Under the pieces are notes generated by a model, which worked only from the letters and a program-made list of their open reading frames with translations, did not search any database and was not told the DNA's origin. Both the position numbers and the translations under genes were made by a program. Positions 1 through 17,520 of a DNA stretch of 26,282 nucleotides are shown here, one piece after another; position 1 is the stretch's first letter, and each line of letters starts with the position of its first letter. The DNA comes from Candidatus Eiseniibacteriota bacterium (GTDB taxonomy: Bacteria > Eisenbacteria > RBG-16-71-46 > JABDJR01 > JAWXBZ01): positions 1-26,282 of the forward strand of contig JAWXBZ010000063.1 of NCBI GenBank assembly GCA_034440375.1. Reading direction: 5' to 3'.

Positions 1-740
1 CCCTGCAGGGCGGCCAGGAGGCCCATGCGCACCTCGTAGCGGACCGCGTAGCCTTCCATGGCATAGGCGCGCCGATAGGCCTCGCCCGCTTCCGACCAAA
101 GTCGATTTCGCGCGCAGATCCGTCCAAGGTAGTCCTCGAGATCACTGAATCCCGGGTGCTCGGACACCATGCTCTCGATTCGGTCCATCAGTTCGTCATC
201 CGGTTCGACATGGTCGTCAAGGCCGGCCCGTTCATACAGGCGGGTAACGATAGGATCGGCCGCGGCAGAACGCCAGCGTGCCAGGCATTCGGCATGCCGC
301 CCCAGTCGGCGTTCCACCACCCCCAGCCGGTGCAGCCAGGGGGCCCTGGGTCCGGTCACTTCAACGGCCCGGTTCAACCGCTCGAGCGCCTCGTCAAATC
401 GTCCCCTGCCGAGGGCCACCAAAGCCAGCCCGTACTCTCCGGATGTTCCAGTGGGATCGTCCGCACCGAGTGCGGCGTAAATTTCCGCGGCCTGGTCGTA
501 ACGCTGGCGCCGCATGTGCAAGTGGGCCAGGGTGCTGCGGGCCGCGGCATAACGCGGATTGATTTCGAGTGAACGCTGCAATGCCGACTCCGCGGTCGTC
601 AACTGTCCCTGCACGAGCTGGAGCAGGGCCGACAGGTGGTGAAGGTCGGCCCAGTTTGGGTGGCGGGCCAGATCGGCCTGAAGGCAGGTGCGTGCCTCCT
701 GGAGGACGTCCATCATCAGTCTCAAATTCTCCCGTCTCAT
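1..740 (-). CDS. Tetratricopeptide repeat protein (3'-truncated by window edge)
   Basis: Not in the ORF track because its stop lies outside the window. Manual translation from ATG 740 (ATGA overlap with the upstream stop; alternative ATG 716/713) is open to the window edge: MRRENLRLMMDVLQEARTCLQADLARHPNWADLHHLSALLQLVQGQLTTAESALQRSLEINPRYAAARSTLAHL...EHPGFSDLEDYLGRICARNRLWSEAGEAYRRAYAME. This shows repeated TPR consensus. Confidence 0.8.
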   Translation of the reverse strand, partial: MRRENLRLMMDVLQEARTCLQADLARHPNWADLHHLSALLQLVQGQLTTAESALQRSLEINPRYAAARSTLAHLHMRRQRYDQAAEIYAALGADDPTGTSGEYGLALVALGRGRFDEALERLNRAVEVTGPRAPWLHRLGVVERRLGRHAECLARWRSAAADPIVTRLYERAGLDDHVEPDDELMDRIESMVSEHPGFSDLEDYLGRICARNRLWSEAGEAYRRAYAMEGYAVRYEVRMGLLAALQ

Positions 741-3019: not shown

Positions 3020-3030
3020 GATGGTTTCAA

Positions 3031-4299
3031 TCAGCCGGTGTCTCCGAGAACCGAGCCGGAAGGAAGGTCCAGCGATGTGAAATCGGTCTCGCACAGATCG
3101 GCAGCCAGGCAGCAATTTCGCCCGATGGTCGTCCCTCGGGGTATGGAGGTGCCCTTCCCCACCACGGTCAGCCCCGAGTGAAGAAGTTGCGGTATCCGGA
3201 CATTGGCGACCGTGGCATCACCCTGGCCAACAATGGCCCCCTCGCCAATCTGGATCTGTTTGTCGAGAATCGCCCGGTCGATCCGCGCGCCGGATTCAAT
3301 ACGCGTATCATTCATGATGATTGAATCCGAGACATGGGCGCCGGGCCCGACGAACACCCCGGGAAAGAGTACCGACCGCTCGACCCGGCCAAGAACAACA
3401 CAGCCGTTGGAGATCAGGCTGTACTGAGCCCGCCCCCCCGCACCGAACTTCACCGGCGGGCGTTCGGCGCTGGGCGTGTGGATCTTCCACTCCGGATCGA
3501 AGAGGTCGAGGCGGGGTCGATCGCTTACCAGGTCAAGATTGGCCTCGTAGTATGCCTCCAGTGCCCCGATGTCCTGCCAGTACTCGTCAAAGCGGTAACC
3601 GAAGACCTTGCCATCGGGAATCAAGAGCGGAAGTATGTTGCGACCGAAGTCATGTTGACTCTCAGGGCTTGCCGCGTCCTGGGTGAGCCGATCCACCAGC
3701 GCCTGCGCCTTCCAGACGTACACCCCCATCGACACCAGGTTGCTGCGCGCCCGGGCTGGTTTCTCATCGAAACCGATCACACGATTGGCATCGTCCGTGT
3801 CGACGATACCGAACTGGTCTGTTATCTCCCATGGCACGGTCGTGACGGCCAGGGTGACGTCGGCGTCATGCTCCTCGTGAAACCGGATCATCCGGTTGTA
3901 GTCCATCTTGTACACGTGATCGCCGGAGAGGATCAGGACATGCTCGACCTTGCGGCGCATTACCTGATCCAGATTCTGGTAGACCGCGTCGGCCGTGCCG
4001 ACGTACCAGTCGCCCGTCTGTCGGCCCAGGAAAGGCTGCAACAGCGTGACACCGCCGGTCATCCGGTCAAGATCCCACGCCTTGCCATTGCCGATATGTT
4101 CGTTGAGCGACATCGGGCGGTACTGCGTCAGGATGCCGATGTCATCGACGCCCGAGTTGACGCAGTTCGACAGTGTGAAGTCGATGATCCGATACTTTCC
4201 ACCGAACGGCACTGCCGGCTTGGCGCGCTTGGCCGAGAGAATCGACAACCGGCTGCCGACGCCGCCGGCGAGGAGAAGCGCGTAGACGTCCCGGTTCAA
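3031..4299 (-). CDS. glgC: Glucose-1-phosphate adenylyltransferase (catalytic subunit)
   Basis: Intact [10 protein letters not shown]...[51 protein letters not shown] and YWQDIG motifs; C-terminal left-handed beta-helix. TTG start overlaps the upstream stop. Confidence 0.93.
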
Positions 4300-5558
4300 C
4301 CGACTTCCCCGCCGCGACGGACGCGGGCTCCCGACTCGACCGGGCTACCGTTGAAATCGACGGCGCGAACACCCGGTTCGACGACGCAGTGCCGGCCGAT
4401 GAGCGCGCCGTCCGGAATGACGGCATCGCGGCCGATGATCGACAGTCCGCCGGAAAAGAGGGCCGGCAGATCCTTGTGCGGCGCGGTCTCGCCGTGACCG
4501 ATCAGCACGTTGGCGCCGATCCGGACATCCTTGTCGACGATGACGTGCGACAGTGTGGCCCCGGCCGCGATCGAGGCACCATTCATCACGATGGAATGGC
4601 GCACGGTGGCACCGGCCTCGATCCGGACACCCGGGAAGAGAATCGAGTTCTCGACAGTCCCTTCCACGTTGCATCCATTGGCCAGCAGACTGCGTTCCAC
4701 CGTAGCCTCGGCTCCCAGGCGGGCCGGAGGCAATTCCTCGCTGCGGGTGTAGACGACCCACTCCGGGTCGTAGAGATTGAGGCGGGGCGTGTCGTTCAGC
4801 AGGTCCATCGAGGCACGATAGTAAGTGTCGACCGTGCCGACATCCTCCCAGTACCCCTCGTACCGATACGCATCCACCCGATCGCCACGGGCCACCATCG
4901 GCTCGATGATCTCCGTCACCAGGTTGTTGGCCTCAGGATGTTCGAGGAGTTCCTTCTGGAGCACGTCCGCGTTGAAGCAGGCAATCCCCATGTAACCGGG
5001 ACCGTCCATCGCCTCGATCGGCTTCTCATGGAAGTGGGTGATCCGCTGATCGGCGTCGACGCGGCAGATGCCGAAACGGTGACTTTCCCCGGCATCGATC
5101 GCCCCCACCGCCAGCGTGACGGGCGCATTCCGCTCAATGTGTGAGTCGAGAAGCCAGGAATAGTCCATCTTGTAGACAAGGTCGCCCGGCAGGATGAGCA
5201 CCCATCGGGCGCGGGCGTGGCGAAGCACATCGAGGTTCTGTCGAACGGCATCCGCCGTTCCAAGATACCAGCGGGTATCGCTCTGGCGCTGGTAGGGCTG
5301 GAGGATCATGACGCCGCCGTCACGGCGGTCCAGGTCCCACGGCTTGCCGATTCCCACATGAGCATGGAGAGAGAGCGGCGCATGCTGCGTGAGGAGGCCG
5401 AGCTGATAGATCTGGGAGTTGCAGAGGTTGGAGAGGGTGAAGTCGATGACCCGGTACTTGCCGCCAAAGGGGAGCGAGCTGGTGGCCCGCATTTCGGTCA
5501 GGACGGAGAGATCACGGGTACTGCCTCCGGCAAGCACCAGTGCCATGACTCGCCGCAA
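4296..5558 (-). CDS. GlgC paralogue with degenerate ATP-binding loop (GlgD-like subunit)
   Basis: Full-length ADP-glucose pyrophosphorylase fold (PFGGKYRVIDF, GTADAVRQN, GDLVYKMDY, FHEKP, YWEDVG), but GxGxRL/AKPA is replaced by GSTRDL/ATSS and DFG is absent. TTG start with GGAGG RBS. Confidence 0.85.
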   Translation of the reverse strand: MRRVMALVLAGGSTRDLSVLTEMRATSSLPFGGKYRVIDFTLSNLCNSQIYQLGLLTQHAPLSLHAHVGIGKPWDLDRRDGGVMILQPYQRQSDTRWYLGTADAVRQNLDVLRHARARWVLILPGDLVYKMDYSWLLDSHIERNAPVTLAVGAIDAGESHRFGICRVDADQRITHFHEKPIEAMDGPGYMGIACFNADVLQKELLEHPEANNLVTEIIEPMVARGDRVDAYRYEGYWEDVGTVDTYYRASMDLLNDTPRLNLYDPEWVVYTRSEELPPARLGAEATVERSLLANGCNVEGTVENSILFPGVRIEAGATVRHSIVMNGASIAAGATLSHVIVDKDVRIGANVLIGHGETAPHKDLPALFSGGLSIIGRDAVIPDGALIGRHCVVEPGVRAVDFNGSPVESGARVRRGGEVG

Positions 5559-5602
5559 CCACTACCTCCAGATTCGCGCGGGGAAAGCGGTGCACCCCGC
5601 TC

Positions 5603-6655
5603 CTACCACCCCAGATTCAATGTGACCCGATTCGTGGCGTCCAGCTCATCGTGATCCAGGAAGGCATAGTCGACCCCGAACCGCGACAGAGGGCCAAGTC
5701 GGAAACGGACGCCGGCCCCCGCGGCAAAGTGGCCCGAATTCGTTCCGGCCCGCACCGCGACCACACTGTTATACCAGTATTCGATGCCGGCATGGAGGTT
5801 TCCGGAGAGAGAACCGGAGGAAAATTGATCCGCATCCCCCAGGTCCTCGAAGGCCAGCTGAACATCGGCGGCCAGCGTGGCGGTGCCCTTGAGAAAGCCA
5901 ATCCCCCTCGTTCCCTGCCCCCCCACCGTCACGGTGGGCGCGATCTTTTCGTGCCGGCCGGTATCCCACTTGATTTGCGTTGTCGTGATGTCGGCCAGGC
6001 GCAGACCGAAGGTGGTCGAGGAGGATGGAAGCCAGAGAAGGCCAAGATCGGCGCCGATGCCGAATGAGGATCCGTCGCCCACGAGGCTCTGACGAACCAA
6101 CTTGACGTTGCCGCCCACCGACCATTTGTCGCCCAGACCGCGGGCATAGTTGAAGAAGACGCCGAGATCGTAGGCGCTCTCGATCCGGACCAGGTCGGGA
6201 TCGACGACGATCAGTCCGCCGGCCTCCTGCCGGAGTGCATCCGAGGTCACCTTGATGTCGTCAACGCCGAGCCGGATGACGGTAAGTCCGACGCTGGAGC
6301 GCCCGCCATTTCGTCCAATCGGCAGAACCGAGCTGATGACGTCGTGTGTGACGATTCCGCCGAACATTTCCGCGTGAGTCAACTGGACATCGGGCTCCCG
6401 GAGGAGCGCCGGACCGGCTGGATTCCAGTAGGTGGCGCTTGCGTCGTCGGCGAGGGCCGTGAAGGCGCCTCCCATGCCGAGGGCGCGGGCCCCGACGCCA
6501 ACCTTCAGGAACTCAGCGGCGAACTTGTCGGCGGCCAGGGCCGCCGGGATCGCCGTAATGAGCAGGGCGGCGGCAAAGAGGACGCCAGAAACCAGACGGG
6601 AGACCGTGGTCCGCAGCGCGATCGAGATATTGATTTTCGGTGACATCATGCGCAT
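5603..6655 (-). CDS. PorV/PorQ-family (FadL-like) outer membrane beta-barrel protein
   Basis: Signal peptide followed by the family signature AEFLKVGVGARALGMGGAFTALADDASATYWNPAG; amphipathic beta-strands; terminal Trp. The true start may be ATG 6649 or 6646, given the GAGGA RBS position. Confidence 0.85.
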   Translation of the reverse strand: MRMMSPKINISIALRTTVSRLVSGVLFAAALLITAIPAALAADKFAAEFLKVGVGARALGMGGAFTALADDASATYWNPAGPALLREPDVQLTHAEMFGGIVTHDVISSVLPIGRNGGRSSVGLTVIRLGVDDIKVTSDALRQEAGGLIVVDPDLVRIESAYDLGVFFNYARGLGDKWSVGGNVKLVRQSLVGDGSSFGIGADLGLLWLPSSSTTFGLRLADITTTQIKWDTGRHEKIAPTVTVGGQGTRGIGFLKGTATLAADVQLAFEDLGDADQFSSGSLSGNLHAGIEYWYNSVVAVRAGTNSGHFAAGAGVRFRLGPLSRFGVDYAFLDHDELDATNRVTLNLGW

Positions 6656-6718
6656 CCTCAGGGTAATCCGGGACCAGATCGTCCCCTCGATCTGTCCAAC
6701 TTTGACAGGGCCCCTGGT

Positions 6719-7126
6719 TCAGGGCCGGGACAGCCGTTCATCAATCATATCCCGCATCAGCCGCCAGCCGATATATTCTTCGATCAATTGTCGATCCGGC
6801 TGCTTGACGTCCGTGAAGCAACAGGCCATTTCCCAGCAGCCGTCGTCCATCCCCTCATTCTGGCAACGAACGACAACCCCTTCGCAGTTAATGACCTGGG
6901 TCTTCTTTCCCTGCCGCCCGAAGGACGGCAAGAGAAGGGTCAGGCCAACCCGGGTCAGGGGCGCCATGAAACTGCGAACCTGGCAGGAGATCCCGCCGGC
7001 CGAAAGATCAAGGCTTTCGCTGCTGACCGGCCGATCACCGCCGGGCTTCTTGTCGCGATCGACCTGGAGTGCGAGGCGGGCATCTATTCTAGGACTCTTG
7101 CGCCGTTCCGTTGTCTGGCGGGCCAT
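6719..7126 (-). CDS. Stand-alone PilZ domain protein (c-di-GMP receptor)
   Basis: RxxxR (ERRKSPR) and DxSxxG (DLSAGG) motifs plus GVVVR...ACCF. Start placed at ATG 7126 with GGAGG RBS rather than 7189. Confidence 0.85.
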   Translation of the reverse strand: MARQTTERRKSPRIDARLALQVDRDKKPGGDRPVSSESLDLSAGGISCQVRSFMAPLTRVGLTLLLPSFGRQGKKTQVINCEGVVVRCQNEGMDDGCWEMACCFTDVKQPDRQLIEEYIGWRLMRDMIDERLSRP

Positions 7127-7330
7127 GGTCCCTCCGTCCGGATCCCTGGCCGGGTCATTGACCGGCCGGTGAAGAACACGCACTTCCAACTCCGGTTTCC
7201 GGAGACGGAAGAAATGTTTCAGAATTTCTGCGTCAGGCGAGTGTCACGCAAGTTCAAGAATGACAAGACCCTAAGCGGGAACGTTAGCATACGATGTCGA
7301 CGAGCATCAACGCGCCGCACGGGCGAATGG

Positions 7331-8203
7331 TCATCGAAATCGATACTCGAGACGAGGTCCGGCAAGATCCGGCAGCAGGGACCGTGAAGATTCCTCGAGG
7401 AAGTCGAGGAATTGAAATCGGCTCCGCCCCCGATCGACGACCACCGGTTCCCCTTCGATCCCGGCCAGATCCGCGGCCCATTGGACGGCTTCCCGCTCGC
7501 CGCCGAGGCGATCCACCAGGCCGAGGCCAAGAGCCTGACGCCCGGTGAAAACCCGGCCGTCGGCGAGTGCCAGGACCTCCGGCCGCGTCATTGATCGGCC
7601 CGCCACCACGGCATCCACGAATTGTTGATAGGCGTCCTCGACGATTCCCTCCAGGAGGCGCCGCTCCTCCTTAGTCGGCTCGCGGGCAATGGTTCCCATG
7701 TCCTTGACCGGCCCGCTTTTGACCACCTCCAGCCGGACACCGACCTTTTGCATCAACTCCTCAGCCGTCATCCACGAAAAGATGACGCCAATCGAGCCGG
7801 TCAGCGATCCGGGATTGGCCATGATCGAATCGCAGGCAATCGCCACGTAGTAGCCACCCGAAGCCGCCGTGTTGGCCATCGAGGCCACGACCGGCTTCGA
7901 GGAACGCAACCGCTTGATGGCGTCGTGGATCTCCTGCGAGGGGGCGATGCCGCCTCCCGGCGAGTCGATGCGGATGACCACCGCAGCGATCGATTCGTCG
8001 TCGGCCAGATCGTCGATCGTCCGAGCGGCATGCTCGCTGGACACGATCGTCCCGGTGATCGGCAGCACGGCCACGCGCCGCCCGAGAAGTGGAAGATCAT
8101 TTCCATCCAGGAATCCGACAGCGAGAAGCAGAATGACACCGGCCCCGAACAGGAGCAACAGGACCACGCCACAACCGATAAGTCCAAACGTTCGTGATGT
8201 CAC
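7331..8203 (-). CDS. sppA: Signal peptide peptidase SppA, 36K type (S49)
   Basis: N-terminal TM helix; IDSPGG, KPVVASM..AASGGYY, GSIGV, KSGPVKD, DGRVFTGRQA...GLVD.LGG. GTG start with GGAG RBS. Confidence 0.93.
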   Translation of the reverse strand: MTSRTFGLIGCGVVLLLLFGAGVILLLAVGFLDGNDLPLLGRRVAVLPITGTIVSSEHAARTIDDLADDESIAAVVIRIDSPGGGIAPSQEIHDAIKRLRSSKPVVASMANTAASGGYYVAIACDSIMANPGSLTGSIGVIFSWMTAEELMQKVGVRLEVVKSGPVKDMGTIAREPTKEERRLLEGIVEDAYQQFVDAVVAGRSMTRPEVLALADGRVFTGRQALGLGLVDRLGGEREAVQWAADLAGIEGEPVVVDRGRSRFQFLDFLEESSRSLLPDLAGPRLEYRFR

Positions 8204-8222
8204 AAAATCTCCATTGACGGAA

Positions 8223-8825
8223 TCACAAAATTTCCAGTGGATGCAGCAGGCGCTCGATCAGGTCGGGATGAACCCGCGGGATGGCCACCGCCGCGAGGGG
8301 TCCCCCCCGCCCGTCCAGGATTCTCGTGCCGGCCTCGAGTGACGCCTCCACCTCGTGAAGGCTTCCCGTGAAGAGTATCAGTGTTCTCCCACCGATGCCG
8401 CGAGCGGCCTGGATCGAGAGAATCCGGATGTCACTGGCCTTGGCCGCCGCATCGGCCGACAACAATCCGGCCGCCACCGTGCGACACTCGAAGAGCCCCA
8501 TCGCCTCGATGGCGCCTGTCGGCGCCATTCCAATCGCTCCCGCCACATCCGGATGCGCCTGGGGCAGCAGCATCTCGTCGATCAGGTCATCGCCCGCCAG
8601 CCGTCGACCGACTTCGTGAGCCGTTTCGACCGCGGCCACTGATCCCGAGTAGATGATGAGGAGCTTTCCAGGGGTGACCGGTTCAACGGCCAGCAGCTGG
8701 ATGGAAGCAGCCTTGACGAGCGCGTCGGCCACGACGTAGCCCCGGGCCAGTGAGGCGAGTTCGAGCAGGGCCAGGGTTGGCGTGGCCGGCCTCTCGATGG
8801 GGAGCGTCGCGTCGGCGGGGATCAC
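8223..8825 (-). CDS. Bacterial microcompartment tandem-domain shell protein (BMC-T, PduT-like)
   Basis: Two BMC domains: LALLELASLARGYVVADALVKAA...PGKLLIIYSGSVAAVE and AMGLFECRTVAAGLLSADAAAKAS...GIGGRTLILFTGSLHEVEASLEAG...IPRVHPDL. GTG start overlaps the BMC-P stop. Confidence 0.88.
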   Translation of the reverse strand: MIPADATLPIERPATPTLALLELASLARGYVVADALVKAASIQLLAVEPVTPGKLLIIYSGSVAAVETAHEVGRRLAGDDLIDEMLLPQAHPDVAGAIGMAPTGAIEAMGLFECRTVAAGLLSADAAAKASDIRILSIQAARGIGGRTLILFTGSLHEVEASLEAGTRILDGRGGPLAAVAIPRVHPDLIERLLHPLEIL

Positions 8826-9124
8826 CGCCCGGGCCTGGCATTGTCGTACAGGCGCTTGCCGCCCGACTCGACAAGATCAACGATTCCCAGGATGGTGGCA
8901 TCGGCCGGTTTTCCGGTGGTCGCCGCCGTGTATCGGGCGCTCGAACCGGAAACGATCAGAACCCGTTCACCGATTCCGGCCCCGATGGAGTCGATAGCCA
9001 CCACCACGGCACCGGACGGCGCCATGTCGGCGCCGAGCGGTTGCACGGCAAGGAGTGTGAGTCCAAGGATGGCAGGATCTTTCCTGCTGGAGACGACCGT
9101 GCCGACTACGTCCGCGAGAATCAT
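8822..9124 (-). CDS. Bacterial microcompartment vertex pentamer (BMC-P, EutN/CcmL family)
   Basis: MILADVVGTVVSSRKDPAILG..LLAVQP...VVAIDSIGAGIGERVLIVSGSSAR....PADATILGIVD is the EutN/CcmL consensus. Confidence 0.93.
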   Translation of the reverse strand: MILADVVGTVVSSRKDPAILGLTLLAVQPLGADMAPSGAVVVAIDSIGAGIGERVLIVSGSSARYTAATTGKPADATILGIVDLVESGGKRLYDNARPGR

Positions 9125-9142
9125 GCCAACGGACGCTAACAG

Positions 9143-9178
9143 GAAGGGTCCGGAGCGTCAACGACGCCCGGACCCTTC
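9143..9178 (-). terminator. Strong GC-rich hairpin (terminator or attenuator) 18 nt upstream of the BMC-P start
   Basis: Minus strand GAAGGGUCCGG-GCGUC-guu-GACGC-u-CCGGACCCUUC gives 16 bp with one bulge. Only a weak U-tract (CUGUUAG) follows. Confidence 0.55.
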
Positions 9179-9349
9179 GGGCGAAGCCGCGATGGGCGTC
9201 GCTCCAGAACATGTATGAGGATGCTCTCCGCGTACGCCGGACCGAACGTCAACTTGATCCCGCACCGACGAGGGACTGTCACCACCCGATGATCGGACGG
9301 CGCAGAGAGCATCAGCTCTGCGCTGAGCCCCGAAAAGTGTCCGGGGTAC
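9143..9349 (-). ncRNA. Candidate structured RNA or regulatory leader upstream of BMC genes
   Basis: Several long helices with G-U pairs that work only on the minus strand (9301-9313 with 9220-9232; 9329-9345 with 9167-9181). Bounded by a sigma54-type promoter and a terminator-like hairpin. Confidence 0.5.
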
Positions 9350-9359
9350 CCGGGACAAT

Positions 9360-9375
9360 TGCAGGAGCCGTGCCA
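9360..9375 (-). promoter_or_regulatory. Sigma54 (RpoN) -24/-12 promoter
   Basis: Minus strand TGGCACG-GCTC-CTGCA versus consensus TGGCACG-N4-TTGCW: one mismatch, exact GG-N10-GC spacing. Predicted TSS about 9349. Confidence 0.6.
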
Positions 9376-9493
9376 GCTCCCTCGAGGACGCCGGCGTCCC
9401 TCCGGCGGCACGAGAACGAAAGTCAAACGCCTGAGAGTGACTCGTACGGGCCATCCGGCCCACCGGCCGGGGCCATGACACCCGACTCCGGTA

Positions 9494-11290
9494 TCAGCGG
9501 ACGATCAGGATCGGACGCGTGACGGTGCCATCGGGAGTGGTGAGACGAAGGAGATAGCGGCCCGATGGCAACTTTTCGGCCCGCCTGGACTCCATGTTCC
9601 AGGTCAGTATCTGATCGCCGGCTTCCTGCGGACCCAGCCGTTCGCCGGCCACCCGACGTCCGAGCACATCGAAGATGTCGACCGCGACATCCCCCCTCGA
9701 CTCCATCCGATAGGACAGATTCAGTGTCGTTCGTACCGGATTGGGATAGACCGGGCCGACCTGGAACCGCGTCAAACCTGCCGGCGTGTCGGCCGGCAAA
9801 CGGAAGGCCGCCACCGTTTCCAGGCGCCCGAAACGTTCCAGTGCGACCAGTTTCAGCATCGACGCCGCCCCCACATCGGACCGGGAGATGTCGATGGCGT
9901 AGCCAGGGCCGCCGCGAATCAACTCGCCGATCGGTCGGGCCTCGCTGTCGACATCGTCAGCCAGGAACAGCAGGAAACCGGAATGATCAACCTCTTCACT
10001 GGTCGTCCACTCGAGCCGGTAACCGCCGGCCGTTCTTGAAAGGCGACTTCCGGCCATGCGGACCGGCGTTGTGCCGGCCGCCTGGCCCGATCGATAGCGA
10101 ATGCTTCCCTCTTCCCCGGAGCCGGCATCGGACCAGATCAGGTGGAGAGTTCCATCGGCGTCGGCGAGAAGGCTCGGGCCGCGCGTTGGTCCGACGGTGG
10201 TCGTAAGACGGGTCGGCTGGACATCCCAACCGGTGTCCGTGTTGATCTGCCGGTAATACAACTCGCTGTTGCCGTGGATGTAATCCTCCCAGACGATGTT
10301 GATGGTGCCGTCCGGAGTCGTGGCCACGGCCGGATTGAGATGGTCGGCGCCGGAAAAGATGAAACGCTTCTCGTGACCGAAGCCGAGTCCCGGGAGCCAG
10401 CGTCGATACCAGATGGCCATCGGAAAGTTGGCTGGATTGTTGGGTGCCGTGTCCCGTCCATCCGACCAGGCAATGTGCAGTGAGCCGTCGATTCCCAGCG
10501 CGAGGCTCGGCCTGGCCGCGAAGCCCAGCGCCCGGCTGACGCGCACCGGCAGGGCCCGCGGCACCCCCTCCGCATCCAGTGGCATGTACCAGATTTCGGT
10601 GTTGAAATTGATGTCGGGGCCACCGTCGAGAATGCCGTCCTGCCAGACGACGTGCAGATCGCCGCTGGGGTCGATGACGACATTCGGTTGAATCGACTGG
10701 GCGGGATGATTGGTGAGGCGGCGGGGTGGCGAGAACTCCCCTCCCGGATCGCGCCGACAGTGATAGATCTCCTTGTTGCCGGAAACGGCATCGGACCAGA
10801 GCAGATGAAGGCGACCGGTGCTGCTGACACAAAGTACGGGATCGAGCGACTCCCCTTCCATGGTCGTGATCGGTTCCTCGTCTTCCCATACGCCAGGGGC
10901 GGATCGGTGCCGGTAGTAAATCTGCTCGGAACCGTCGCGCAGGTCTTCCCAGGCCAGGTGCAGATCGCCGGCCGGACCGACAGCCAGCGCGGGGTTTCGA
11001 ACCAATGAGTCGCCAAGTGACAGGACGGTCGGGTCGGTGGACCAGATGCCGAGCTCGCTTCGTTCGGCGCCGCGCACGACGGCAGCCTGTGCGCTGGACC
11101 GCTGATACCACACGACATAAAGGCGATTTTCCGGAAGGCGCACCAGGGCCTGTCGGCCGGGTGCGGTCAACGCCAACACCCCCGGTGGGGTGAGACGCGT
11201 GTCCTCGGTTGTCCAGATGGCCGCGCCGAGCGGAGTTGGGCCAGGGAGACCCGCGAGCAGGATCGCGACGGACAACCAGATGCTTGTCAT
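9494..11290 (-). CDS. Secreted repeat protein (probable beta-propeller, BNR/sialidase-like repeats) with T9SS type A/FlgD-Ig-like C-terminal domain
   Basis: Signal peptide; about 7 repeats of P-x-L-x3-(P/D)-x-G-x-L-H-L-x-W-x-D...I-Y-Y-R. Linker TPVRM...YRLEWTTSEEVDHSGF. C-terminal YPNPVRTTLNLSY...IFDVLGRRV...W...LPSGRYLLRL. Confidence 0.8.
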   Translation of the reverse strand: MTSIWLSVAILLAGLPGPTPLGAAIWTTEDTRLTPPGVLALTAPGRQALVRLPENRLYVVWYQRSSAQAAVVRGAERSELGIWSTDPTVLSLGDSLVRNPALAVGPAGDLHLAWEDLRDGSEQIYYRHRSAPGVWEDEEPITTMEGESLDPVLCVSSTGRLHLLWSDAVSGNKEIYHCRRDPGGEFSPPRRLTNHPAQSIQPNVVIDPSGDLHVVWQDGILDGGPDINFNTEIWYMPLDAEGVPRALPVRVSRALGFAARPSLALGIDGSLHIAWSDGRDTAPNNPANFPMAIWYRRWLPGLGFGHEKRFIFSGADHLNPAVATTPDGTINIVWEDYIHGNSELYYRQINTDTGWDVQPTRLTTTVGPTRGPSLLADADGTLHLIWSDAGSGEEGSIRYRSGQAAGTTPVRMAGSRLSRTAGGYRLEWTTSEEVDHSGFLLFLADDVDSEARPIGELIRGGPGYAIDISRSDVGAASMLKLVALERFGRLETVAAFRLPADTPAGLTRFQVGPVYPNPVRTTLNLSYRMESRGDVAVDIFDVLGRRVAGERLGPQEAGDQILTWNMESRRAEKLPSGRYLLRLTTPDGTVTRPILIVR

Positions 11291-14091
11291 GGCACCACCA
11301 CCAGCCGGCGGACGACCGTTCCACCGGGACCATTGGCCCGGGCGAAATAGATACCGGCCGGCACCGCGCGACCGGCGTCATCCGCGCCGTCCCAGTGGAC
11401 GCGGTGCTCCCCGGCCGGAAGTAATTGGTCCAGCAGAGTCCGAATTCGGCGTCCGACCGCATCGAACAACACGAGCGTCAGGTGGGACGACGCGGCCGTT
11501 CGGAGCGAGAGCTCCGCATTGGTACGACACGGTATCGGGGCCACCGTCAATTGCAGGGGCACGATCGGCGCCATTCCCACGCTGACCTGCCCGAGTTCGA
11601 TGGTCCCGCCGCTGCGTGTGATCGCCTCCAGCCGGTAGAGGACCGGCGCATCGGGCGCGCCCAGGTCCTTGTAACTTCCGATCGCCGCGCCGGGCAGCAC
11701 GACCATCCCCTCGTTCCGATCCGGCGCGGCCGCCAGCGCGCGCCGAAGCACCAGAGCGGCGGGGAGATCGGAAGGATCAAGTCTCCAGTCAAGTTGCACG
11801 CCATCCACCTGCCGCGATGCCTCAAGGTCGAGCAGTCGGACCGGCACTTCGGTTGATTCGACGCGAATGTTGTCAATCCACCAGCCGCGGTCGGTCACGC
11901 GCGCGGCGGTTGCGAAAAATCGGAATCGAAGTCGGGCGCTCCCGGCGAAAGCGGACAGGTCGAATTCGACCGGCTCCCACTGCGACCGTAGTCCGGTAAA
12001 AATTCCGCGGCCGCTCAAGTCGGCATCGCCCGAAAAGTAGATCTGGTCATAGCCGCCAATCGGCGTGATCGATTGCCAGGCCCCCCCGTTCACTGACATC
12101 TGGACAAACGCTCCGGCCCCCACCATCGACGACTCGGGATGCCCGATTTCGAGGAACTGGTCGATCTTGAGTCGACCGGCCGGAGGGATAAGGAACACCG
12201 GCGTTTCGAGGGAACAGTCGGTGCCGGCGGGATACCCGCCCCCGGCATTTCCGGCATGCCACGCACGGCTGCCCGTGAACGGCGCGCTGACTTCAAATCG
12301 CCAGACGTTGATACGATCGATGCGAAGCACCCGGCTCTGGAAACCGCCGGTGTTCTCGTTGAAGTCGGCCGACAATCCCTCGATATCGCCCGCACCAATG
12401 GTGATGGTCGAGTGAATCGGCACTTCCTCCCGATACGACACCCGAAGCTCGACCGGAAGGCCGTAGGGATTGGTCGGGAGTTCTCCCGTGATTCGAGCGA
12501 TCAGCGGTTCGAGTTCGTGTATCCCGGTGGCAAGAGTGCCAACGATCCGTTCCGGGACCTCCAGGACGACATGCGGATCGATACTGGCCGCCGACAGGAC
12601 GACATTGGAAACGTTGCCTCCCGTGACCAACACCGACGGGGTCAGCTCGAAACTTTCGCCCGGTTCTAGAAAACGGTCGCCGTCACCATCCCGCGGGGCC
12701 ACCCGAATGGTCTGGAGCCGTGCGATCGGCCCGGCGCCGGGACGAAGGGTGGCAGTCATCCGGCCGGAGCCGTCCGGCCCATCGAGGGCATAGACGGCGA
12801 TGCCCGTTTCCTGCCCTTCCTGGTTCCGGCTGTCGGGAATGGTAAATCGACCAAATCCCTCCCCGGTCGTCGCGCCGTTCCAGGGATCCCCCGCATCTCC
12901 GAAGCTGGGGTTGCCATTCAGATTCTCCAGCTGGAAGAGGCCATCGGCCTGTTCCAGGCCGACCTTGTAGTTGGGCGGCAGGTTGTTGGTCGGCCGAAGT
13001 TCGTTGACGTGATAGATGAGGAGCCCCTCGCCGGGGAGAAACGAATCGAATCCGATGCGTCGGCGGTTCTCGACCAGGAAATACTGAAAACCGCCGGCGC
13101 CGCCGGCGTTGAGCCGGTAGATGGCGCCTCCCAATTCCACCGGATCAATGACCACGGCCTCCTGGAGCGAGGTGACGACCACTGGAGAAAGGACGCCAAG
13201 CCTCGTCTTGCACCAGGCGTCGAGATGCGCGGGCGTCCGGGTTTGATCCAGACTCCAGCCGCCCGACATGAGCGACCAGGCGCCGAGGCCCAGTGATCGA
13301 CCGGTGGCATCGTACAAATCGGGCAGGCCCAGGAGGTGCCCAATCTCGTGGGCCATGACGCCGAGTCCGCCGCTCCAGGGCACGATTGCAAACTCGGAAA
13401 CGTTGACGCCGTCGAGATACTGCGGTTCCGGAAGGAACCAGGCCACGGCGCGCAACTCCTGGGGAGAGGACGATCCCTCTGTACCCGTACCGGTGTGCAT
13501 GACAAGCAGCAGATCGACACGCTTGTCATCATCACCGGTATCCGCCACGCCGTCGGGGCCATCGTTGTCAAACAGGGCGTAGTTCACGTCGGGATCCGCG
13601 GCGCGGGCCGCATCGCGAACCATCCCCTGCGTGTTCCGCGGATAGAAAGAAAGTCCGGCCGCACCGGCAACGTAATTCGAATAGCGCTCCGGCATTCGAT
13701 GCCAGCCGATCACCTGGCCGGCAAGGATCAGGCGACCGCCGGTATTTTCGATGTAATAGTCGGCCATGCTGCCATTCGGCAGTTCATTCCGGCTGAAGAG
13801 GCGCTTCTCGATCGCAGCCAGGTCGAGCATGTCGCCGGTGGCGGGGCGATCCATGAAGTCGGCCAGTATGACCAGCACGTTCAGCGTGACCGTCTCGTCG
13901 ACCTGAAGACGGGAGGCCACCGCCTCGCGCAGGGCCGAGGGTGGCGTCTGCCCGAACGGTTCCCATGTCATGAGATGGCGTTCGGCGGGGTCGGTGATGG
14001 AATCCAGGCGACCGGGCGTGGCCGGAACCGCCCAGGACGGGCGGGCCGTCCCGGTGAGCAGCAGTATCATGATTAGCAGTCGACGACGCAT
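11287..14091 (-). CDS. M6-family (immune inhibitor A-like) zinc metalloprotease with C-terminal FlgD-Ig/T9SS-like domain
   Basis: Signal peptide; VLVILADF.D, SMADYY.EN, HEIGHLLGLPDLYD, GLGAWSLMSGG, PAHLDAWCK..LG, YFLVENR...GFD..LPGEGLLIYHV, LEQADG. C-terminal LFDAVGRRIRTL...WDGADDAGRAVPAGIYF. Confidence 0.9.
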   Translation of the reverse strand: MRRRLLIMILLLTGTARPSWAVPATPGRLDSITDPAERHLMTWEPFGQTPPSALREAVASRLQVDETVTLNVLVILADFMDRPATGDMLDLAAIEKRLFSRNELPNGSMADYYIENTGGRLILAGQVIGWHRMPERYSNYVAGAAGLSFYPRNTQGMVRDAARAADPDVNYALFDNDGPDGVADTGDDDKRVDLLLVMHTGTGTEGSSSPQELRAVAWFLPEPQYLDGVNVSEFAIVPWSGGLGVMAHEIGHLLGLPDLYDATGRSLGLGAWSLMSGGWSLDQTRTPAHLDAWCKTRLGVLSPVVVTSLQEAVVIDPVELGGAIYRLNAGGAGGFQYFLVENRRRIGFDSFLPGEGLLIYHVNELRPTNNLPPNYKVGLEQADGLFQLENLNGNPSFGDAGDPWNGATTGEGFGRFTIPDSRNQEGQETGIAVYALDGPDGSGRMTATLRPGAGPIARLQTIRVAPRDGDGDRFLEPGESFELTPSVLVTGGNVSNVVLSAASIDPHVVLEVPERIVGTLATGIHELEPLIARITGELPTNPYGLPVELRVSYREEVPIHSTITIGAGDIEGLSADFNENTGGFQSRVLRIDRINVWRFEVSAPFTGSRAWHAGNAGGGYPAGTDCSLETPVFLIPPAGRLKIDQFLEIGHPESSMVGAGAFVQMSVNGGAWQSITPIGGYDQIYFSGDADLSGRGIFTGLRSQWEPVEFDLSAFAGSARLRFRFFATAARVTDRGWWIDNIRVESTEVPVRLLDLEASRQVDGVQLDWRLDPSDLPAALVLRRALAAAPDRNEGMVVLPGAAIGSYKDLGAPDAPVLYRLEAITRSGGTIELGQVSVGMAPIVPLQLTVAPIPCRTNAELSLRTAASSHLTLVLFDAVGRRIRTLLDQLLPAGEHRVHWDGADDAGRAVPAGIYFARANGPGGTVVRRLVVVP

Positions 14092-14160
14092 CAGACCTTC
14101 ATGACCGGCGGCAGCTGCCGGCCTCGATGAACAACCCCGTAGCTAAAAGGTACCGAACGT

Positions 14161-14703
14161 TCAGCTTCCTGGCAACCGGCGAGGACCCTGGCGCCGAATC
14201 ACCAGCGCCATGAGGATGCCCATGAACGCGCCGAACAAGAATCCCGCCGCCACGTCCCCGGGATAATGGACCCCGAGATAGACCCGCGACCAGCCGACGA
14301 GGAGGGCCACCGGCACCGTGATCGCCAGCGTCACCGGATAAAATGTACCCAGTGCCGCGCTGGCGGCGGCGCCATTGGTGGCATGATTCGAGGGGAACCC
14401 GTAGCGGCCGCCACAACGCATCACGACCCGGGCATCGATCGCGGCATGACAGGGACGGAGTCGGTGAAATGCCGGCTTCAAGATCTGCGCGGCGGCGGAA
14501 TCTCCCAGCGCCACGGCGAGGACCATGGCCAGAACGGCCCGTCGACCACGATCGCCCCTGACGGCCAGCAGGTAGATCACCCCCGCGCCGATGGCCACGC
14601 TCCAGGAGGTCCAACTGGTCACGATTGGCATCAGCCGGTCGAGCCAGGGATGAATCGCCACGCGGTTCAGCCAGTGGAAGAGGAGGACATCCAGATCGAT
14701 CAA
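14161..14703 (-). CDS. PAP2-family membrane phosphatase (possible undecaprenyl-pyrophosphate or lipid phosphatase)
   Basis: Motifs KPAFHRLRP, FPSNH and SRVYLGVHYPGD. Start placed at TTG 14703 (GGGGAG RBS, TTGA overlap with the upstream stop) rather than 14790. Confidence 0.88.
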   Translation of the reverse strand: MIDLDVLLFHWLNRVAIHPWLDRLMPIVTSWTSWSVAIGAGVIYLLAVRGDRGRRAVLAMVLAVALGDSAAAQILKPAFHRLRPCHAAIDARVVMRCGGRYGFPSNHATNGAAASAALGTFYPVTLAITVPVALLVGWSRVYLGVHYPGDVAAGFLFGAFMGILMALVIRRQGPRRLPGS

Positions 14704-16805
14704 CGGCGCTCCCCCGCGGAGGGGGGCATTGCCGACAATGTTTCCAGCTGCCTGCGGGCCGGCTTGTACTCGGGGCTCAACCGGAGGCACTCCTCCCAGG
14801 CGCGTCGCGCGCCGGCCAGATCCTTCAGCCGTGCCCGGGCCAGGCCCAGAAAATAGTGAGCTTCCACGTGGCGCGGTTCGCTTTCGATGACTCGTCCGAA
14901 CGCCTCCATCGCCTCCTGGAGTCGTTCCTCCATCAGGAGACTCTTGCCGAGCCCGAGACGGGCCGCCACATGGGTCGGCTCGATCTCGATCAACCGGCGG
15001 AAGTGCGCGGCCGAGCCGGAAAAGTCCCCTTGTCTCCCGTAGATGATCCCGGCGTTGTAACGGATCTCGACTTCATCCCCTTTTTTCGCCAGGGCCCGGT
15101 CGATATGAAAGCGGGCCCGCGTCAGATCCCCCTCGTGCTCGTACCAGGCCGCGAGGTTGTTGACCGTCCGCGGGTAGTCGGGGTCGATGGCGGCCGCCTT
15201 TTCAAACTCCTCGAGCGCCTCGCGCGAACGACTCTGTTGCATCAGGAGTACGCCGAGATTGTTGTGCCCTTCGTTGAATCGGGGATCGGCGGCGATGGCG
15301 GAGCGGTAGGCGGCTTCCGCTGGCGCCACACGCCCTTTTCCGGCCTCAACGATGCCAAGCCGAAGATAGGACTCGGCGAAAGTGTGCCGCTGCCGGAGGC
15401 GATGCGGGTCGTGGCTGACGAGGAGCACCCCGAGAACGAGCGCCCCGGCCGCGTAACGGAGCTCACCGATTCGTCCCCGACGGCATCGGGAGGTCGCGTC
15501 GACGAGGAGCCAGGCCGCCGGGACAACCAGCCACGGGATGATCGGTGCTCGAAATCGCCCGCAGACAAAGAAGATCGCGATCGAAAGACTGTAGGCCAGC
15601 ACCGAGATCGCCAGGATCCAGGGGAATCGCTTCTGTACGAAGGCGTGCACGAGGCCGGCCAGGGCCAGCGGCGCCACGGCTCCAAAAGTAAGTAGAAGAG
15701 GCCAGCGGAAGAGGATCGAGTACCGACTGAAGAAGTAAAAATCCTCGTTGTTGGGAATCTCGAATGATCCCCAGAAATAACCGATTTTCGAGAGAAGGAG
15801 CACCATGGCCTGACCAGGCGCCTTCGCGATCCAGGCGAGGCCGCGGACAAACCAGTAATCGGATACTTCCGAGGGTTTGAGCGGCCGTCCGAGTGCCTCT
15901 TCGGCAAGGCGCGTCGCGTCCCGTACGCCGCCGTACCATGTGGGGCGGAACTCTGGCGCCAACGCCGCCATGCCATCGGCCGAAGGATTGTTGCCGAGGT
16001 AGAAATTGAGCCCCCCCTGGGAGGCGATGGGCACGAAGTCCTCACCCACCGCGTAGTTTCGAATCGTCACGACTCCGATCGGGAGCGCGGTACCGGCCAG
16101 GTACAGGCCGAGCGTCGCCGCCCAGACGGTGCGGCCAAGCCGCCGCTGGCGCATCAGGAGCAGCAGAAGGAAGATCGGAGCCAGGATCAGAAAATTCGGC
16201 CGGGTGATGGCCGCGAGCCCCAGCACCAGACCGGCCAGGAATGTCGAGACGAGGGCCCCCGGTCGTCCTTCGGCTTCGACGACCGCCAGGACCCGTTCCA
16301 GCGCCAGGAGACCCAGGAATGTCTCGAGTACGACGAGAAGCAATTCGGCCTCGTAGTAAACGCTCGTCCCTAGGAACGCCGCCATGAGGCCCGCGACAAA
16401 ACCGGTTACCGGACCGAACAGCCGGGTGGCGATTCGGCCGACCAGAACGCACGACGCGGCCCCGATGGCGGCCTGCACGAGGCGAATGACCCAGTAGGAG
16501 TGATCCGAGACGAAGTAGACCGCGGCGAGAAAGTAGGCGTAGAGCGGTGCGCGGAAGAAGACCTCGGCGCCGACCCAATCGCCTCGCGCGATCTGGACGG
16601 CCCACCGGTCATGGTAGAGCGCATCCATCTGCGGATCGGCGAAAAACGGGTTGTGCTGGTATCCGATCAGGTAGATGAGCCGGATCAGGATCGCGGTCAG
16701 AAAGATTGGCGGCCCGATCCGACCCGGCCGAAAGCCGGGGCTTCTTTCCGGCTTCTCGAGCCCTCTGCTAGCATCGCCGACCATGATCGAGTCCAGCGGT
16801 GTCAT
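14700..16805 (-). CDS. GT-C fold glycosyltransferase (ArnT/PMT_2-like) with C-terminal TPR repeats
   Basis: Multi-TM N-terminal region with D-x2-Y...W-A, PLYAYFLA, GLAAITRPN, RNY, GGLNFYLGNNP, RFRAP; then about 5 TPRs (HNNLGVLL, YNAGIIY, HYFLGLAR). The start is uncertain (16805 or 16784). Confidence 0.82.
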   Translation of the reverse strand: MTPLDSIMVGDASRGLEKPERSPGFRPGRIGPPIFLTAILIRLIYLIGYQHNPFFADPQMDALYHDRWAVQIARGDWVGAEVFFRAPLYAYFLAAVYFVSDHSYWVIRLVQAAIGAASCVLVGRIATRLFGPVTGFVAGLMAAFLGTSVYYEAELLLVVLETFLGLLALERVLAVVEAEGRPGALVSTFLAGLVLGLAAITRPNFLILAPIFLLLLLMRQRRLGRTVWAATLGLYLAGTALPIGVVTIRNYAVGEDFVPIASQGGLNFYLGNNPSADGMAALAPEFRPTWYGGVRDATRLAEEALGRPLKPSEVSDYWFVRGLAWIAKAPGQAMVLLLSKIGYFWGSFEIPNNEDFYFFSRYSILFRWPLLLTFGAVAPLALAGLVHAFVQKRFPWILAISVLAYSLSIAIFFVCGRFRAPIIPWLVVPAAWLLVDATSRCRRGRIGELRYAAGALVLGVLLVSHDPHRLRQRHTFAESYLRLGIVEAGKGRVAPAEAAYRSAIAADPRFNEGHNNLGVLLMQQSRSREALEEFEKAAAIDPDYPRTVNNLAAWYEHEGDLTRARFHIDRALAKKGDEVEIRYNAGIIYGRQGDFSGSAAHFRRLIEIEPTHVAARLGLGKSLLMEERLQEAMEAFGRVIESEPRHVEAHYFLGLARARLKDLAGARRAWEECLRLSPEYKPARRQLETLSAMPPSAGERR

Positions 16806-17520
16806 GGCATCAGCCCGGCCGGGCCACCGGGAGCGGCTCGTCGTGGAACGGGGGTGCTGGACGCTTCTCTGGCAGGCACTTCCCGGGATCCGCGCCGGCC
16901 TCTCGGGGCGTCAAGTCCTCACCCGGCCGGACCTTGCCCCGTCGGACAGGGAACCCACCGCTCACATCGACCAGGTTCACGGCTGTGATGTGGTGGTGGC
17001 GCAAGGCGAAGGATCTGCCGGTCCGGCCGACGGACTCGTGACGGCGCAGGGCGACCTGCGCCTCGTCATCCGCGTGGCTGATTGCCTGCCGGTCCTTCTG
17101 GCCGTCCCGGGCGGCGTGGCAGCCGTCCACGCCGGCTGGCGTGGCGCCGCGGGCGACATCACAGGTCGGGCTCTCGGGAGACTCCTCGAGGAGTCCGGCG
17201 GAACGGCGGAGGAGGTCGTGGCCTGGATCGGCCCCGCCATCGGCGTCTGTTGTTTCGAGGTCGGGCCAGAAGTCGCCTCGGCATTTCCGGCGGCGGTTCG
17301 TCGTGCCGGACCCCGCCGTGACCATGTCAACCTGGCCGCGGCCGTCGCCGGACAGCTGATTGAGCTCGGGGTGCCCGGAGCGGCCATCGACATCAGTGGC
17401 TATTGCACTCGCTGTCATCAGCACCTCTGGCATTCGCATCGGGGTTCCGGCGGTCAGCCCGGCCGCCTGTTGGCCTGGATCACCCGTCCGGGTCAGGACG
17501 ACTCCAGCGTGGCACGATAG
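16804..17520 (+). CDS. pgeF: PgeF/YfiH family protein (purine nucleoside phosphorylase / laccase-like domain)
   Basis: QVHG, ADGLVT, ADCLPV, VHAGWRG, IGPAIGVCCFEVG, CTRC...SHR motifs. The start is uncertain: ATG 16804, or GTG 16843 with a GGGAG RBS. Confidence 0.88.
   Translation: MASARPGHRERLVVERGCWTLLWQALPGIRAGLSGRQVLTRPDLAPSDREPTAHIDQVHGCDVVVAQGEGSAGPADGLVTAQGDLRLVIRVADCLPVLLAVPGGVAAVHAGWRGAAGDITGRALGRLLEESGGTAEEVVAWIGPAIGVCCFEVGPEVASAFPAAVRRAGPRRDHVNLAAAVAGQLIELGVPGAAIDISGYCTRCHQHLWHSHRGSGGQPGRLLAWITRPGQDDSSVAR

Follow-up and report, generated by a model that had tools for sequence, protein, structure and literature searches.

The window analysed here is a stretch of 26,282 nucleotides (nt) from a Candidatus Eiseniibacteriota bacterium (assembly GCA_034440375.1, contig JAWXBZ010000063.1), and our subject is a candidate small RNA (sRNA) gene on the minus strand of a 369-nt spacer (9125-9493) flanked by two minus-strand genes. 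Upstream in the direction of transcription is a gene for a secreted protein of 598 amino acids with a type IX secretion system (T9SS) sorting tail and BNR/GH43-like domains (9494-11290; Pfam). Downstream, the first gene after the promoter encodes an EutN/CcmL-type vertex protein (BMC-P) of a bacterial microcompartment (BMC) (8822-9124; PF03319, E 3.4e-27). It is followed by a gene for BMC-T, a tandem-domain shell protein (8223-8825; PF00936 in two stretches, E 2e-31), whose start overlaps the EutN stop, by sppA, which codes for an S49 signal peptide peptidase (7331-8203; PF01343, E 1.8e-48), and then by a gene for a PilZ protein. The original prediction, made from the letters alone, had placed within this spacer an RNA of about 200 nt, running from about 9349 to a strong hairpin and controlling or preceding the BMC genes by switching between two folds.

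The spacer contains three open reading frames (ORFs) of 96-107 amino acids. None of them matched Pfam, and their GC content at codon position 2 is 0.58-0.69, as against 0.46-0.52 in the neighbouring genes. Because the ORFs have neither a Pfam match nor the coding signature of this genome, we treat the spacer as non-coding; a small protein gene, considered as a candidate, was ruled out on these grounds. No ORF common to the RNA copies was found on reading the sequences of the stand-alone paralogs described below. A DNA-level search with the 369-nt spacer recovered only itself and short matches in its own genome and, among 60 relatives, only GC-rich matches of 20-40 nt (E 0.002-0.009), while a metagenome scan with EutN gave 31 loci with a top identity of 57%, none of them syntenic.

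A regular-expression match in this non-coding DNA identifies a sigma-54 type promoter on the minus strand at 9375-9360 (TGGCAC-N5-CTGCA, with the GG at 9374-9373 and the GC at 9362-9361). Counted from its -12 position, transcription is predicted to start at about 9349, so the promoter is placed exactly for the start from which the RNA had been drawn. A scoring matrix derived from 27 further non-coding sites in the genome gives this site 19.2 bits, a score attained or exceeded by 11 sites genome-wide and by none when the spacing is moved by -2 to +3. With the correct spacing, TGGCAC-N5-NTGCW is present 25 times, compared with 10-12 times at spacings off by 1-2 nt; 13 of the 25 fall in DNA not strictly called as coding, where other spacings (N2-N9) give 3-7. 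The genome encodes rpoN (E 3.9e-64) and has 19 strong matches to PF00158, the domain by which we recognised enhancer-binding-protein genes (E <= 1.7e-50). Across the homologs described below, the -24/-12 element is invariant in all four close copies while the surrounding DNA has diverged, and at least 9 of the 12 sigma-54 consensus positions are matched in 24 of the 25 family members. A structured minus-strand RNA that begins near 9349, measures about 205-225 nt and finishes with the strong hairpin is very likely real.

Two further observations concern sites of this kind. The 3' end of the upstream gene contains a perfect 10-nt inverted repeat (9526-9535 and 9561-9570; TGCCATCGGG / CCCGATGGCA, 25 nt apart), and a third, similar copy lies in the spacer at 9450-9460, so that the copies are 75-195 nt upstream of the sigma-54 -24 element; the 9526-9570 repeat is a candidate site for an enhancer-binding protein, or a chance occurrence. 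On another contig (G000:C177) the same sigma-54-type site, with identical flanks, is found near both contig ends in inverted orientation (76-91, minus strand, and 8315-8330, plus strand), reflecting either an inverted repeat or an assembly artefact.

The complementarities that had been named within the stretch are all there. An inverted-repeat check recovers 9220-9232/9301-9313 (13 nt, 92%), 9143-9153/9168-9178 (11 nt, 100%), 9167-9177/9335-9345 (11 nt, 91%) and two repeats of 8 nt each (9162-9169/9194-9201 and 9300-9307/9316-9323). From these and from the centroid fold the following architecture is predicted, 5' to 3'. A 5'-terminal hairpin (9328-9346) pairs 9346-9340 with 9334-9328 in 7 bp around a 5-nt loop, with a pair probability of 0.57-0.66 and an energy of -10.7 kcal/mol on its own; the paralogs have an analogous hairpin in their folds. 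We considered whether such a hairpin is a special trait of sigma-54 transcripts and rejected the idea, the mean minimum free energy (MFE) of positions +1 to +45 being -12.8 vs -11.0 for intergenic 45-mers, that is, background-like. Next comes a rod domain (9220-9313), a long imperfect hairpin whose basal helix joins 9313-9301 to 9232-9220 with pair probabilities of 0.47-0.69 in the window copy and whose core helix (9308-9302/9231-9225) is of invariant type; its tip region carries, by pattern, the C-rich motif GUCCCUC (9270-9276). The last element is a GC-rich 3' hairpin of 16 bp (9143-9178, -30.1 kcal/mol), into which the 11-nt perfect repeat extends and which is the probable terminator of the RNA.

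Taken whole, the 225-nt minus-strand RNA has an MFE of -108.5 kcal/mol (z -3.65), and none of 200 shuffled sequences folded as well, so that folding is indeed better than in shuffled controls. Against the background of its own genome, such z-scores are reached by 2 of 57 random 225-nt intergenic windows; the region, better than about 96% of them, is thus unusually structured without being unique. The plus strand folds equally well (-109.0 kcal/mol, z -5.26), which means that energy alone picks no strand. The earlier suggestion that G-U pairs favour the minus strand therefore fails in terms of energy, and it is from the relatives that it gains its support: a U-G pair at one core position is kept in 24 of the 25 members, and this fixes the strand, since the opposite strand would have a C-A mismatch there.

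The second part of the original prediction, two mutually exclusive folds forming a terminator/antiterminator switch, does not hold up when the window's copy is folded at equilibrium. The 3' hairpin has pair probabilities of 0.90-1.00, whereas the helix that would close the rod and the second proposed antiterminator have probabilities of about zero. Forcing the rod-closing helix (9345-9335/9167-9177) costs 14.5 kcal/mol (-94.0 vs -108.5 kcal/mol), and the antiterminator fold is, in this thermodynamic model, negligible.

The RNA had been said to resemble no known riboswitch, and Rfam bears this out, leaving its novelty intact. At the gathering score there were no Rfam matches anywhere in the window. 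With E allowed up to 10, the region 9050-9560 gave only four matches (E 0.83 to 7), scoring 12-19 bits vs cut-offs of 50-60, and a search of the three paralog loci gave a single unrelated match (E 0.11).

To look for relatives by structure we used covariance models: a first model (R1) of the window's 5' 135 nt, from the single sequence, and a three-sequence model of the rod (R3), on which the window scores 167.3 bits (R1, matching itself) and 114 bits respectively. The single-sequence model detected a paralog elsewhere in the window's genome (G000:C122; 33.7 bits, with E 7e-4 for the whole genome). This paralog has its own sigma-54 element and occupies the 610 nt that separate two convergent genes. 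It shares the basal helix, whose 3' strand and tail are identical over 17 nt, and its 16-bp hairpin runs into a T-rich tail. Iterated models revealed two more in a genome of the sister genus (G001, the sole other genome of the window's family examined), one on either side of tex, about 2.8 kb from each other and both oriented against that gene (G001:C113; L089 1049-1256 and L093 1479-1686). Both possess a sigma-54 promoter, 5' hairpin, rod and canonical terminator and face a convergent gene, and the second (C113b) scores 69.2 bits with R3 although it was not in the training set of that model. There are thus two copies per genome in both G000 and G001. The paralogs also fold well against controls (z -6.0 for G000:C122 and -4.2 for a second paralog). 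A gene for an MqsA-like antitoxin lies near the G001:C113 copies.

Beyond the window's family, a strictly filtered class-wide search with R3 matched 7 of 141 genomes. One of these, G021, belongs to another family and was outside the training set (40.5 bits, E 1.4e-6). Its RNA has a sigma-54 element upstream, and after the RNA, in the same orientation, come a TTGACA-18-TAGCGT promoter, a Shine-Dalgarno sequence and sppA. Matches in G026, G051, G087 and G140 were dropped as false, being coding-like and without a sigma-54 element, and a weak match in G001:C1 was dropped because it looks coding. The first model also matched 54 nt of G040:C148 (3082-3135; L085 1501-1554) at 31 bits, with the 3' tail motif GCAUCCUCA and without the inner rod, which may be a truncated relative or a chance match. 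An exact-pattern scan of species genomes found only the known G001 and G021 copies and three matches from unrelated phyla, in an archaeon, a planctomycete and an actinobacterium, which we take as chance.

The strict search missed copies in two families, f9 and f2, that came to light when loci containing sppA were targeted. From 60 relatives we obtained 30 such loci. With filters off, R3 matched 13 of the 30, about 120-290 nt upstream of sppA and on the sppA strand, and a pairing search over 28 of them (L109-L136) placed the rod in 21, from families f2, f9 and f13. All 21 loci have the RNA before sppA, in the same orientation, and no shell gene. Of the seven loci without a rod, six have sppA immediately after BMC genes, and the seventh is on a contig that offers just 228 nt of upstream sequence; R3 gave no match in five genomes with sppA after BMC genes, a result that is uninformative. 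Alignments A6 and A11, which had antisense rows, were left out of the counts, and locus L131 was left out of the rod set. The resulting family has at least 25 elements from four families of one class: the window's copy, those of the 21 relatives' sppA loci and the three stand-alone paralogs (n = 25), of which 22, the window's copy included, are linked to sppA.

Synteny across these loci is pronounced. In f2, a family of the same order as the window's organism, a homolog of the window's upstream gene is the left neighbour in seven of seven loci, and the sigma-54 element lies 258-298 nt before sppA. After the rod, 22 of the 25 members have a GC-rich hairpin in the corresponding position. A sigma-70 type promoter (TTGNNN-16..18-TANNNT) comes after the RNA in 20 of the 22 copies linked to sppA and in none of the three that stand alone. 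The synteny in f2, f9 and f13 points to an ancestral unit consisting of upstream gene, sigma-54 promoter, RNA, terminator, sigma-70 promoter and sppA. In the window the RNA precedes shell genes only because EutN and BMC-T sit inside this sppA unit, a neighbourhood that is lineage-specific. We note separately that six loci of families f4, f6, f11 and f15 (L119, L129, L130, L131, L132 and L136) have EutN and BMC-T homologs within about 1 kb upstream of sppA. With sppA directly after BMC genes in these four families, the sppA-BMC neighbourhood is widespread in the class, and it may be older than the arrangement in the window.

With 24 homologs sharing the promoter, 5' hairpin, rod and 3' hairpin, the comparison of homologous regions reveals a covarying basal helix. 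RNAalifold applied to a sequence-only MAFFT alignment of the 25 members predicts 13 basal pairs. Of 324 cells, 95.1% can pair, vs 40-55% when partners are slid by 1-3 columns; changes on both sides number 14 cells vs 2-8 in the slid controls; and none of 500 shuffles reaches the observed pairing, the number of double-change cells or the covariation score. One pair (39-120) is GC in 12 members, GU in five, AU in four and CG in three, and another is CG in 20 and UA in four. Within the set of four close copies, both partners have changed in 7 of 32 pairs (1-4 when slid), in an alignment fitted to the model, which therefore favours the structure; when the four full-length RNAs are aligned with MAFFT, RNAalifold detects compensatory changes in 9 of 32 pairs. 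All 25 rods, about 95 nt, fold on their own into one long imperfect hairpin. The C-rich tip motif is found by pattern in 24 of 25, most clearly as GAUCCCC in f9 and G001 or GAUCCGC in f2, with predicted unpaired probabilities of about 0.83 in f9, 0.6-0.7 in f2, 0.2-0.43 in f1 (the window's family) and 0.43 in the window copy.

Variation closer to the window comes from public sequencing data. Of 16 public runs that were listed, none was an RNA run containing the region. Contigs of four public DNA runs were compared over it, and only one run, X16, which represents a related strain, gave usable variation. Its EutN gene differs at 16 of 451 positions (96.5% identity) and a 121-nt piece of the RNA at 19 (84%). 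Among the ten of these 19 differences that are listed, 9344 and 9330 change together in the 5' hairpin (C-G to G-C), 9345 changes from C to U and keeps a U-G pair, 9309 likewise becomes U opposite G in the basal helix, and six fall in predicted loops, including 9335-9337 in the loop of the 5' hairpin. These changes offer a small independent hint in favour of the predicted structure.

That the structure is a chance product of GC-rich spacer DNA we find hardly credible. A GC-rich genome does give low folding energies everywhere, and the spacer evolves fast, as the contrast between the RNA piece and EutN in X16 illustrates. Against this, so few of the intergenic windows are as structured, and the 24 homologs, with the same architecture and promoter, already contradict it.

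The end of the RNA is also the beginning of another transcription unit. A sigma-70 type promoter for the downstream operon, recognised through its conservation in the sister genus, occupies 9161-9133 on the minus strand (-35 TTGACG at 9161-9156, a 17-nt spacer and -10 TAGCGT at 9138-9133). The -10 hexamer ends 8 nt before the EutN ATG (9124), so that the EutN mRNA is probably leaderless. EutN has no Shine-Dalgarno sequence, while the first gene of the main BMC locus has one. Genome-wide, 12 strict promoters (TTGACN-16..18-TANNNT) are followed by a start codon at a distance of 5-9 nt from the -10, and in 11 of the 12 this codon is ATG, a pattern that is a signature of leaderless mRNAs. Promoters of the form TTGAC/TTGAA-17/18-TANNNT are also seen in about 14 of 36 listed tRNA upstream regions, one of them, for a tRNA-Met, having both EutN hexamers. 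A scan for consensus promoters over 8600-9900 called none, missing the EutN promoter because it has 8 of 12 consensus matches and the scan needs 9.

Comparison with the sister genus separates this promoter from the RNA. G001 has the same gene order (upstream gene, EutN, BMC-T, SppA) with a spacer of only 147 nt. Common to both are TTGAC(G/A), the 17-nt spacer, TAGC(G/A)T and the 8 nt to the EutN ATG; the rest of the spacer is not conserved. In G001, then, EutN still has its promoter although the RNA is absent from that site, and a search of about 600 nt upstream of EutN found no sigma-54 site (best score 0.7). As far as the compared sequences tell, the RNA has been lost at the EutN site in G001, which has its two copies elsewhere in the genome. 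The upstream gene of G001 lacks the C-terminal sorting domain (427 vs 598 amino acids). The spacer (L022 1789-1935) contains a GG-N11-GC string and a match to GGAGCATC, which could be remnants of a deleted RNA gene.

These observations change the role of what had been called the terminator of the switch (9178-9143). The 16-bp hairpin is real, but it lacks a canonical U-tract, and it appears to be the RNA's own 3' hairpin, overlapping the EutN promoter: its 3' arm and loop are at once the -35 hexamer and the spacer of that promoter. The tail that follows (9142-9125) is weakly U-rich, with three T in its first eight bases. A consensus terminator scan of 8600-9900 found no terminator-like sites, and over 1-20000 the same scan gave 19 vs 13.5 +/- 4.0, which is no enrichment. 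Hairpins of 8 bp or more located behind stop codons in this genome have at least five T in the next eight bases in only 6.9% of cases, so that the missing U-tract is weak evidence either way. Several of the relatives' 3' hairpins have clear U-tracts.

The overlap of hairpin and promoter raises the question of whether there is a functional RNA at all, or whether the repeats are DNA-level features, such as operator palindromes for regulators of the EutN/sppA promoter, or an insulator behind the upstream gene. In keeping with such an explanation, the hairpin forms a 36-bp palindrome that overlaps both the -35 hexamer and the promoter spacer, folding is just as good on the plus strand, and G001 conserves the 3' arm of the hairpin but not the 5' arm. 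We nonetheless consider it very improbable. The U-G pair kept at one core position breaks the symmetry expected of DNA, and wobble-type changes recur elsewhere; compensatory changes link helices 70-90 nt apart; and the stand-alone paralogs have promoters and terminators of their own with no adjacent promoter to regulate.

A more serious competitor is a cis-acting leader, either an attenuator or a riboswitch. Transcription would start at the sigma-54 promoter, the rod would sense a ligand or protein, and the 3' hairpin would terminate the transcript unless overridden, read-through then expressing sppA (here EutN, BMC-T and sppA). Because the linkage to sppA on the same strand is so conserved, the RNA lying directly upstream in the 21 relatives' loci of three families and in the window, we keep this explanation in view as unlikely rather than dismissing it. 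The hairpin after the rod in 22 of 25 members would suit a leader, as would the weak U-tail of the window copy, which would permit read-through, and the complementarity in that copy between the 5' hairpin region and the 5' arm of the terminator. However, in 20 of the 22 linked loci a canonically spaced sigma-70 promoter stands between hairpin and gene, in the window even overlapping the hairpin, and the three paralogs have no co-oriented downstream gene. The helices needed for antitermination have an ensemble probability of about zero at the energetic cost given above, and the 5' hairpin that an antiterminator must open is kept by a compensatory change in X16. The same promoter region apparently serves EutN in G001 without the RNA, and Rfam offers no known leader as a match. 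For the BMC shell genes specifically, the riboswitch or attenuator originally proposed can be set aside: the relatives' sppA loci have no shell genes, the sister genus keeps the EutN promoter without the RNA, and the antiterminator is negligible.

The original prediction had also allowed for a stand-alone sRNA, perhaps a second 6S-like RNA. More broadly, the RNA might bind a protein, as a sponge or 6S-like regulator of RNA polymerase or of an RNA-binding protein, with the rod and its tip as the recognition surface. The dominance of a long, imperfect and conserved rod is in agreement with this, as are the presence of multiple copies per genome and the conservation of the tip motif in 24 of 25 members even though it is partly paired in several families. 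Like 6S RNA (RF00013), the RNA is about 200 nt long and largely double-stranded. Unlike 6S RNA, it has a consensus with neither a stem closing the 5' and 3' ends nor a large central bubble, and no Rfam match to 6S or any other family; its promoter is of the sigma-54 type, which to our knowledge is not the case for known 6S genes. Repeated GGA loop motifs, on inspection of the copies, are not conserved. We therefore judge a protein-binding role improbable, and the 6S-like variant of it is contradicted by the absence of a match, of the closing stem and of the corresponding promoter type.

The stand-alone sRNA itself fits best: three paralogs lie before convergent genes, and where the RNA is linked to sppA the two are set apart by the 3' hairpin and the sigma-70 promoter. 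On balance we favour, as the probable interpretation, that 9349-9125 on the minus strand is an sRNA gene that carries a sigma-54 promoter and a 3' hairpin of its own, and a member of a class-wide family. Sequence comparison brings out the architecture and its promoter, the covarying pairs, the conserved synteny and the stand-alone paralogs; on that footing the gene is conserved and structured, its link is to sppA and not to shell genes, and it can occur as an isolated copy. The family is absent from Rfam 15 and previously undescribed as far as these searches reach, and it extends across one class of uncultured bacteria.

Under this sRNA interpretation, an enhancer-binding protein would switch the RNA on, and the transcript would end at the 3' hairpin. 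It would then act in trans, most plausibly through pairing of its C-rich tip with G-rich ribosome-binding regions; this is the likeliest single mode of action, and still a tentative proposal, in which the tip would serve as seed. In the window copy the weak U-tail might let some sigma-54 transcripts read into EutN, BMC-T and sppA. Because the U-tail is degenerate and the hairpin overlaps the EutN promoter, a cis effect in this copy is plausible, either by such read-through or by interference between the two promoters.

Several points weigh against this interpretation. Both ends of the transcript are predictions, as is its existence, and the 3' hairpin of the window copy has no canonical U-tract, which leaves termination here uncertain. 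No gene for an enhancer-binding protein was found adjacent to the RNA. The same-strand linkage to sppA, conserved in three families, could mean a role in cis rather than in trans. In the predicted folds of the window's family the C-rich tip is mostly paired (unpaired 0.2-0.43). Covariation beyond the 13 basal pairs rests on four close copies and on alignments fitted to the model, and the cells counted are not independent, as variation is mostly between families and 11 of the f9 rows are near-identical. Finally, the evidence from X16 comes from one contig of 173 nt at depth 5, with 10 of the 19 differences listed.

Small RNAs dependent on sigma-54 are known from several groups, among them Qrr1-5 of Vibrio, GlmY of enterobacteria and CrcZ of Pseudomonas. 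The present RNA resembles them in having a -24/-12 promoter, in being a short non-coding RNA that appears to carry its own end hairpin, in having several paralogs and in occurring in a genome with many enhancer-binding proteins. It has no sequence or covariance-model similarity to them (these families are in Rfam and gave no match), it is longer, at about 190-295 nt, with one rod dominant, and it is linked to sppA instead of an activator gene. What we describe is thus a new family, but of a known kind. A different parallel is provided by sRNAs of the RsaE/RoxS type, which pair with ribosome-binding sites through C-rich loops. As in these, a UCCC-type motif is conserved at a hairpin tip and, in f9, predicted to be largely unpaired; unlike these, the RNA has one such motif rather than several, the motif is partly paired in other families, and Rfam gives no match.

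Where BMC genes are concerned, the eut genes of Enterococcus and Listeria are subject to terminator/antiterminator control by the EutV ANTAR system and to a riboswitch-containing sRNA, EutX/Rli55. A structured RNA and a hairpin upstream of shell genes are what the window shares with these systems. The paired hexaloop hairpins of ANTAR leaders are missing, however, the loops being of 5 and 6-8 nt and not overlapping the terminator. There is also no match to a cobalamin or other riboswitch, and the family is linked to sppA, not to shell genes. A search of the genome for the ANTAR domain (PF03861) found no match, but none was found in control genomes either, which makes this result uninformative. 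The RNA is probably not an ANTAR-type leader.

Predicted sigma-54 promoters have been described before glycyl-radical microcompartment clusters in Clostridium ljungdahlii (PMC12016505). They resemble the present case in that a sigma-54 promoter lies about 240-320 nt upstream of a microcompartment-associated gene. Those promoters are proposed there to drive protein genes directly, whereas here an RNA gene with a hairpin would intervene, and then a second promoter; the accessible part of that report describes no comparable RNA.

The position of EutN and BMC-T in the window, away from the main BMC locus, recalls the satellite BMC loci of Sutter et al. 2021, for which separate regulation of satellite shell genes is proposed to tune the shell (PMC8217296). 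The main locus of this genome (G000:C30; L083 7231-12136) encodes an RpiB-like protein, DeoC, BMC-H, three BMC-P and an aldehyde dehydrogenase, followed by nucleotide-salvage enzymes, and has no BMC-T, so the pair in the window may supply the genome's only BMC-T. By gene content and position the window's EutN and BMC-T form a satellite pair. The accessible portion of the satellite-locus paper describes no RNA element, and in the window the regulation would appear to have been inherited from the sppA locus.

Elsewhere in the window, genes for a GT4 glycosyltransferase, a PIG-L deacetylase and BshC follow one another at 17493-20915 (minus strand), a likely bacillithiol synthesis cluster; upstream on the same strand are a methyltransferase, an NUBPL/ParA-type ATPase and a thioredoxin.

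A search of the literature found no report of a regulatory RNA for Eisenbacteria. What is added here, to a phylum known only from metagenome-assembled genomes, is a delimited and covarying RNA family with conserved synteny. The comparison also corrects a tempting misreading of the RNA as a switch for shell genes, and it supplies landmarks for metatranscriptome work: a predicted start near 9349, an end near 9143 and a putatively leaderless EutN start at 9124. It further suggests that satellite shell genes can inherit the regulation of the locus in which they land. One can go further and imagine that sigma-54 RNA gene, terminator and sigma-70 promoter together make up a control unit for envelope and secretion functions (sppA) that answers to two sigma factors, the RNA acting in trans by its C-rich tip and in cis by terminator read-through or occlusion of the sigma-70 promoter, with shell composition (the BMC-T pore protein and a fourth vertex protein) brought under a sigma-54 signal through the two shell genes that have come to lie inside the unit in this lineage. 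We offer this as a speculation, and an unlikely one. If it were true, a class-wide regulatory RNA of an uncultured phylum would provide an unusual link between an RNA regulator and the tuning of an organelle shell.

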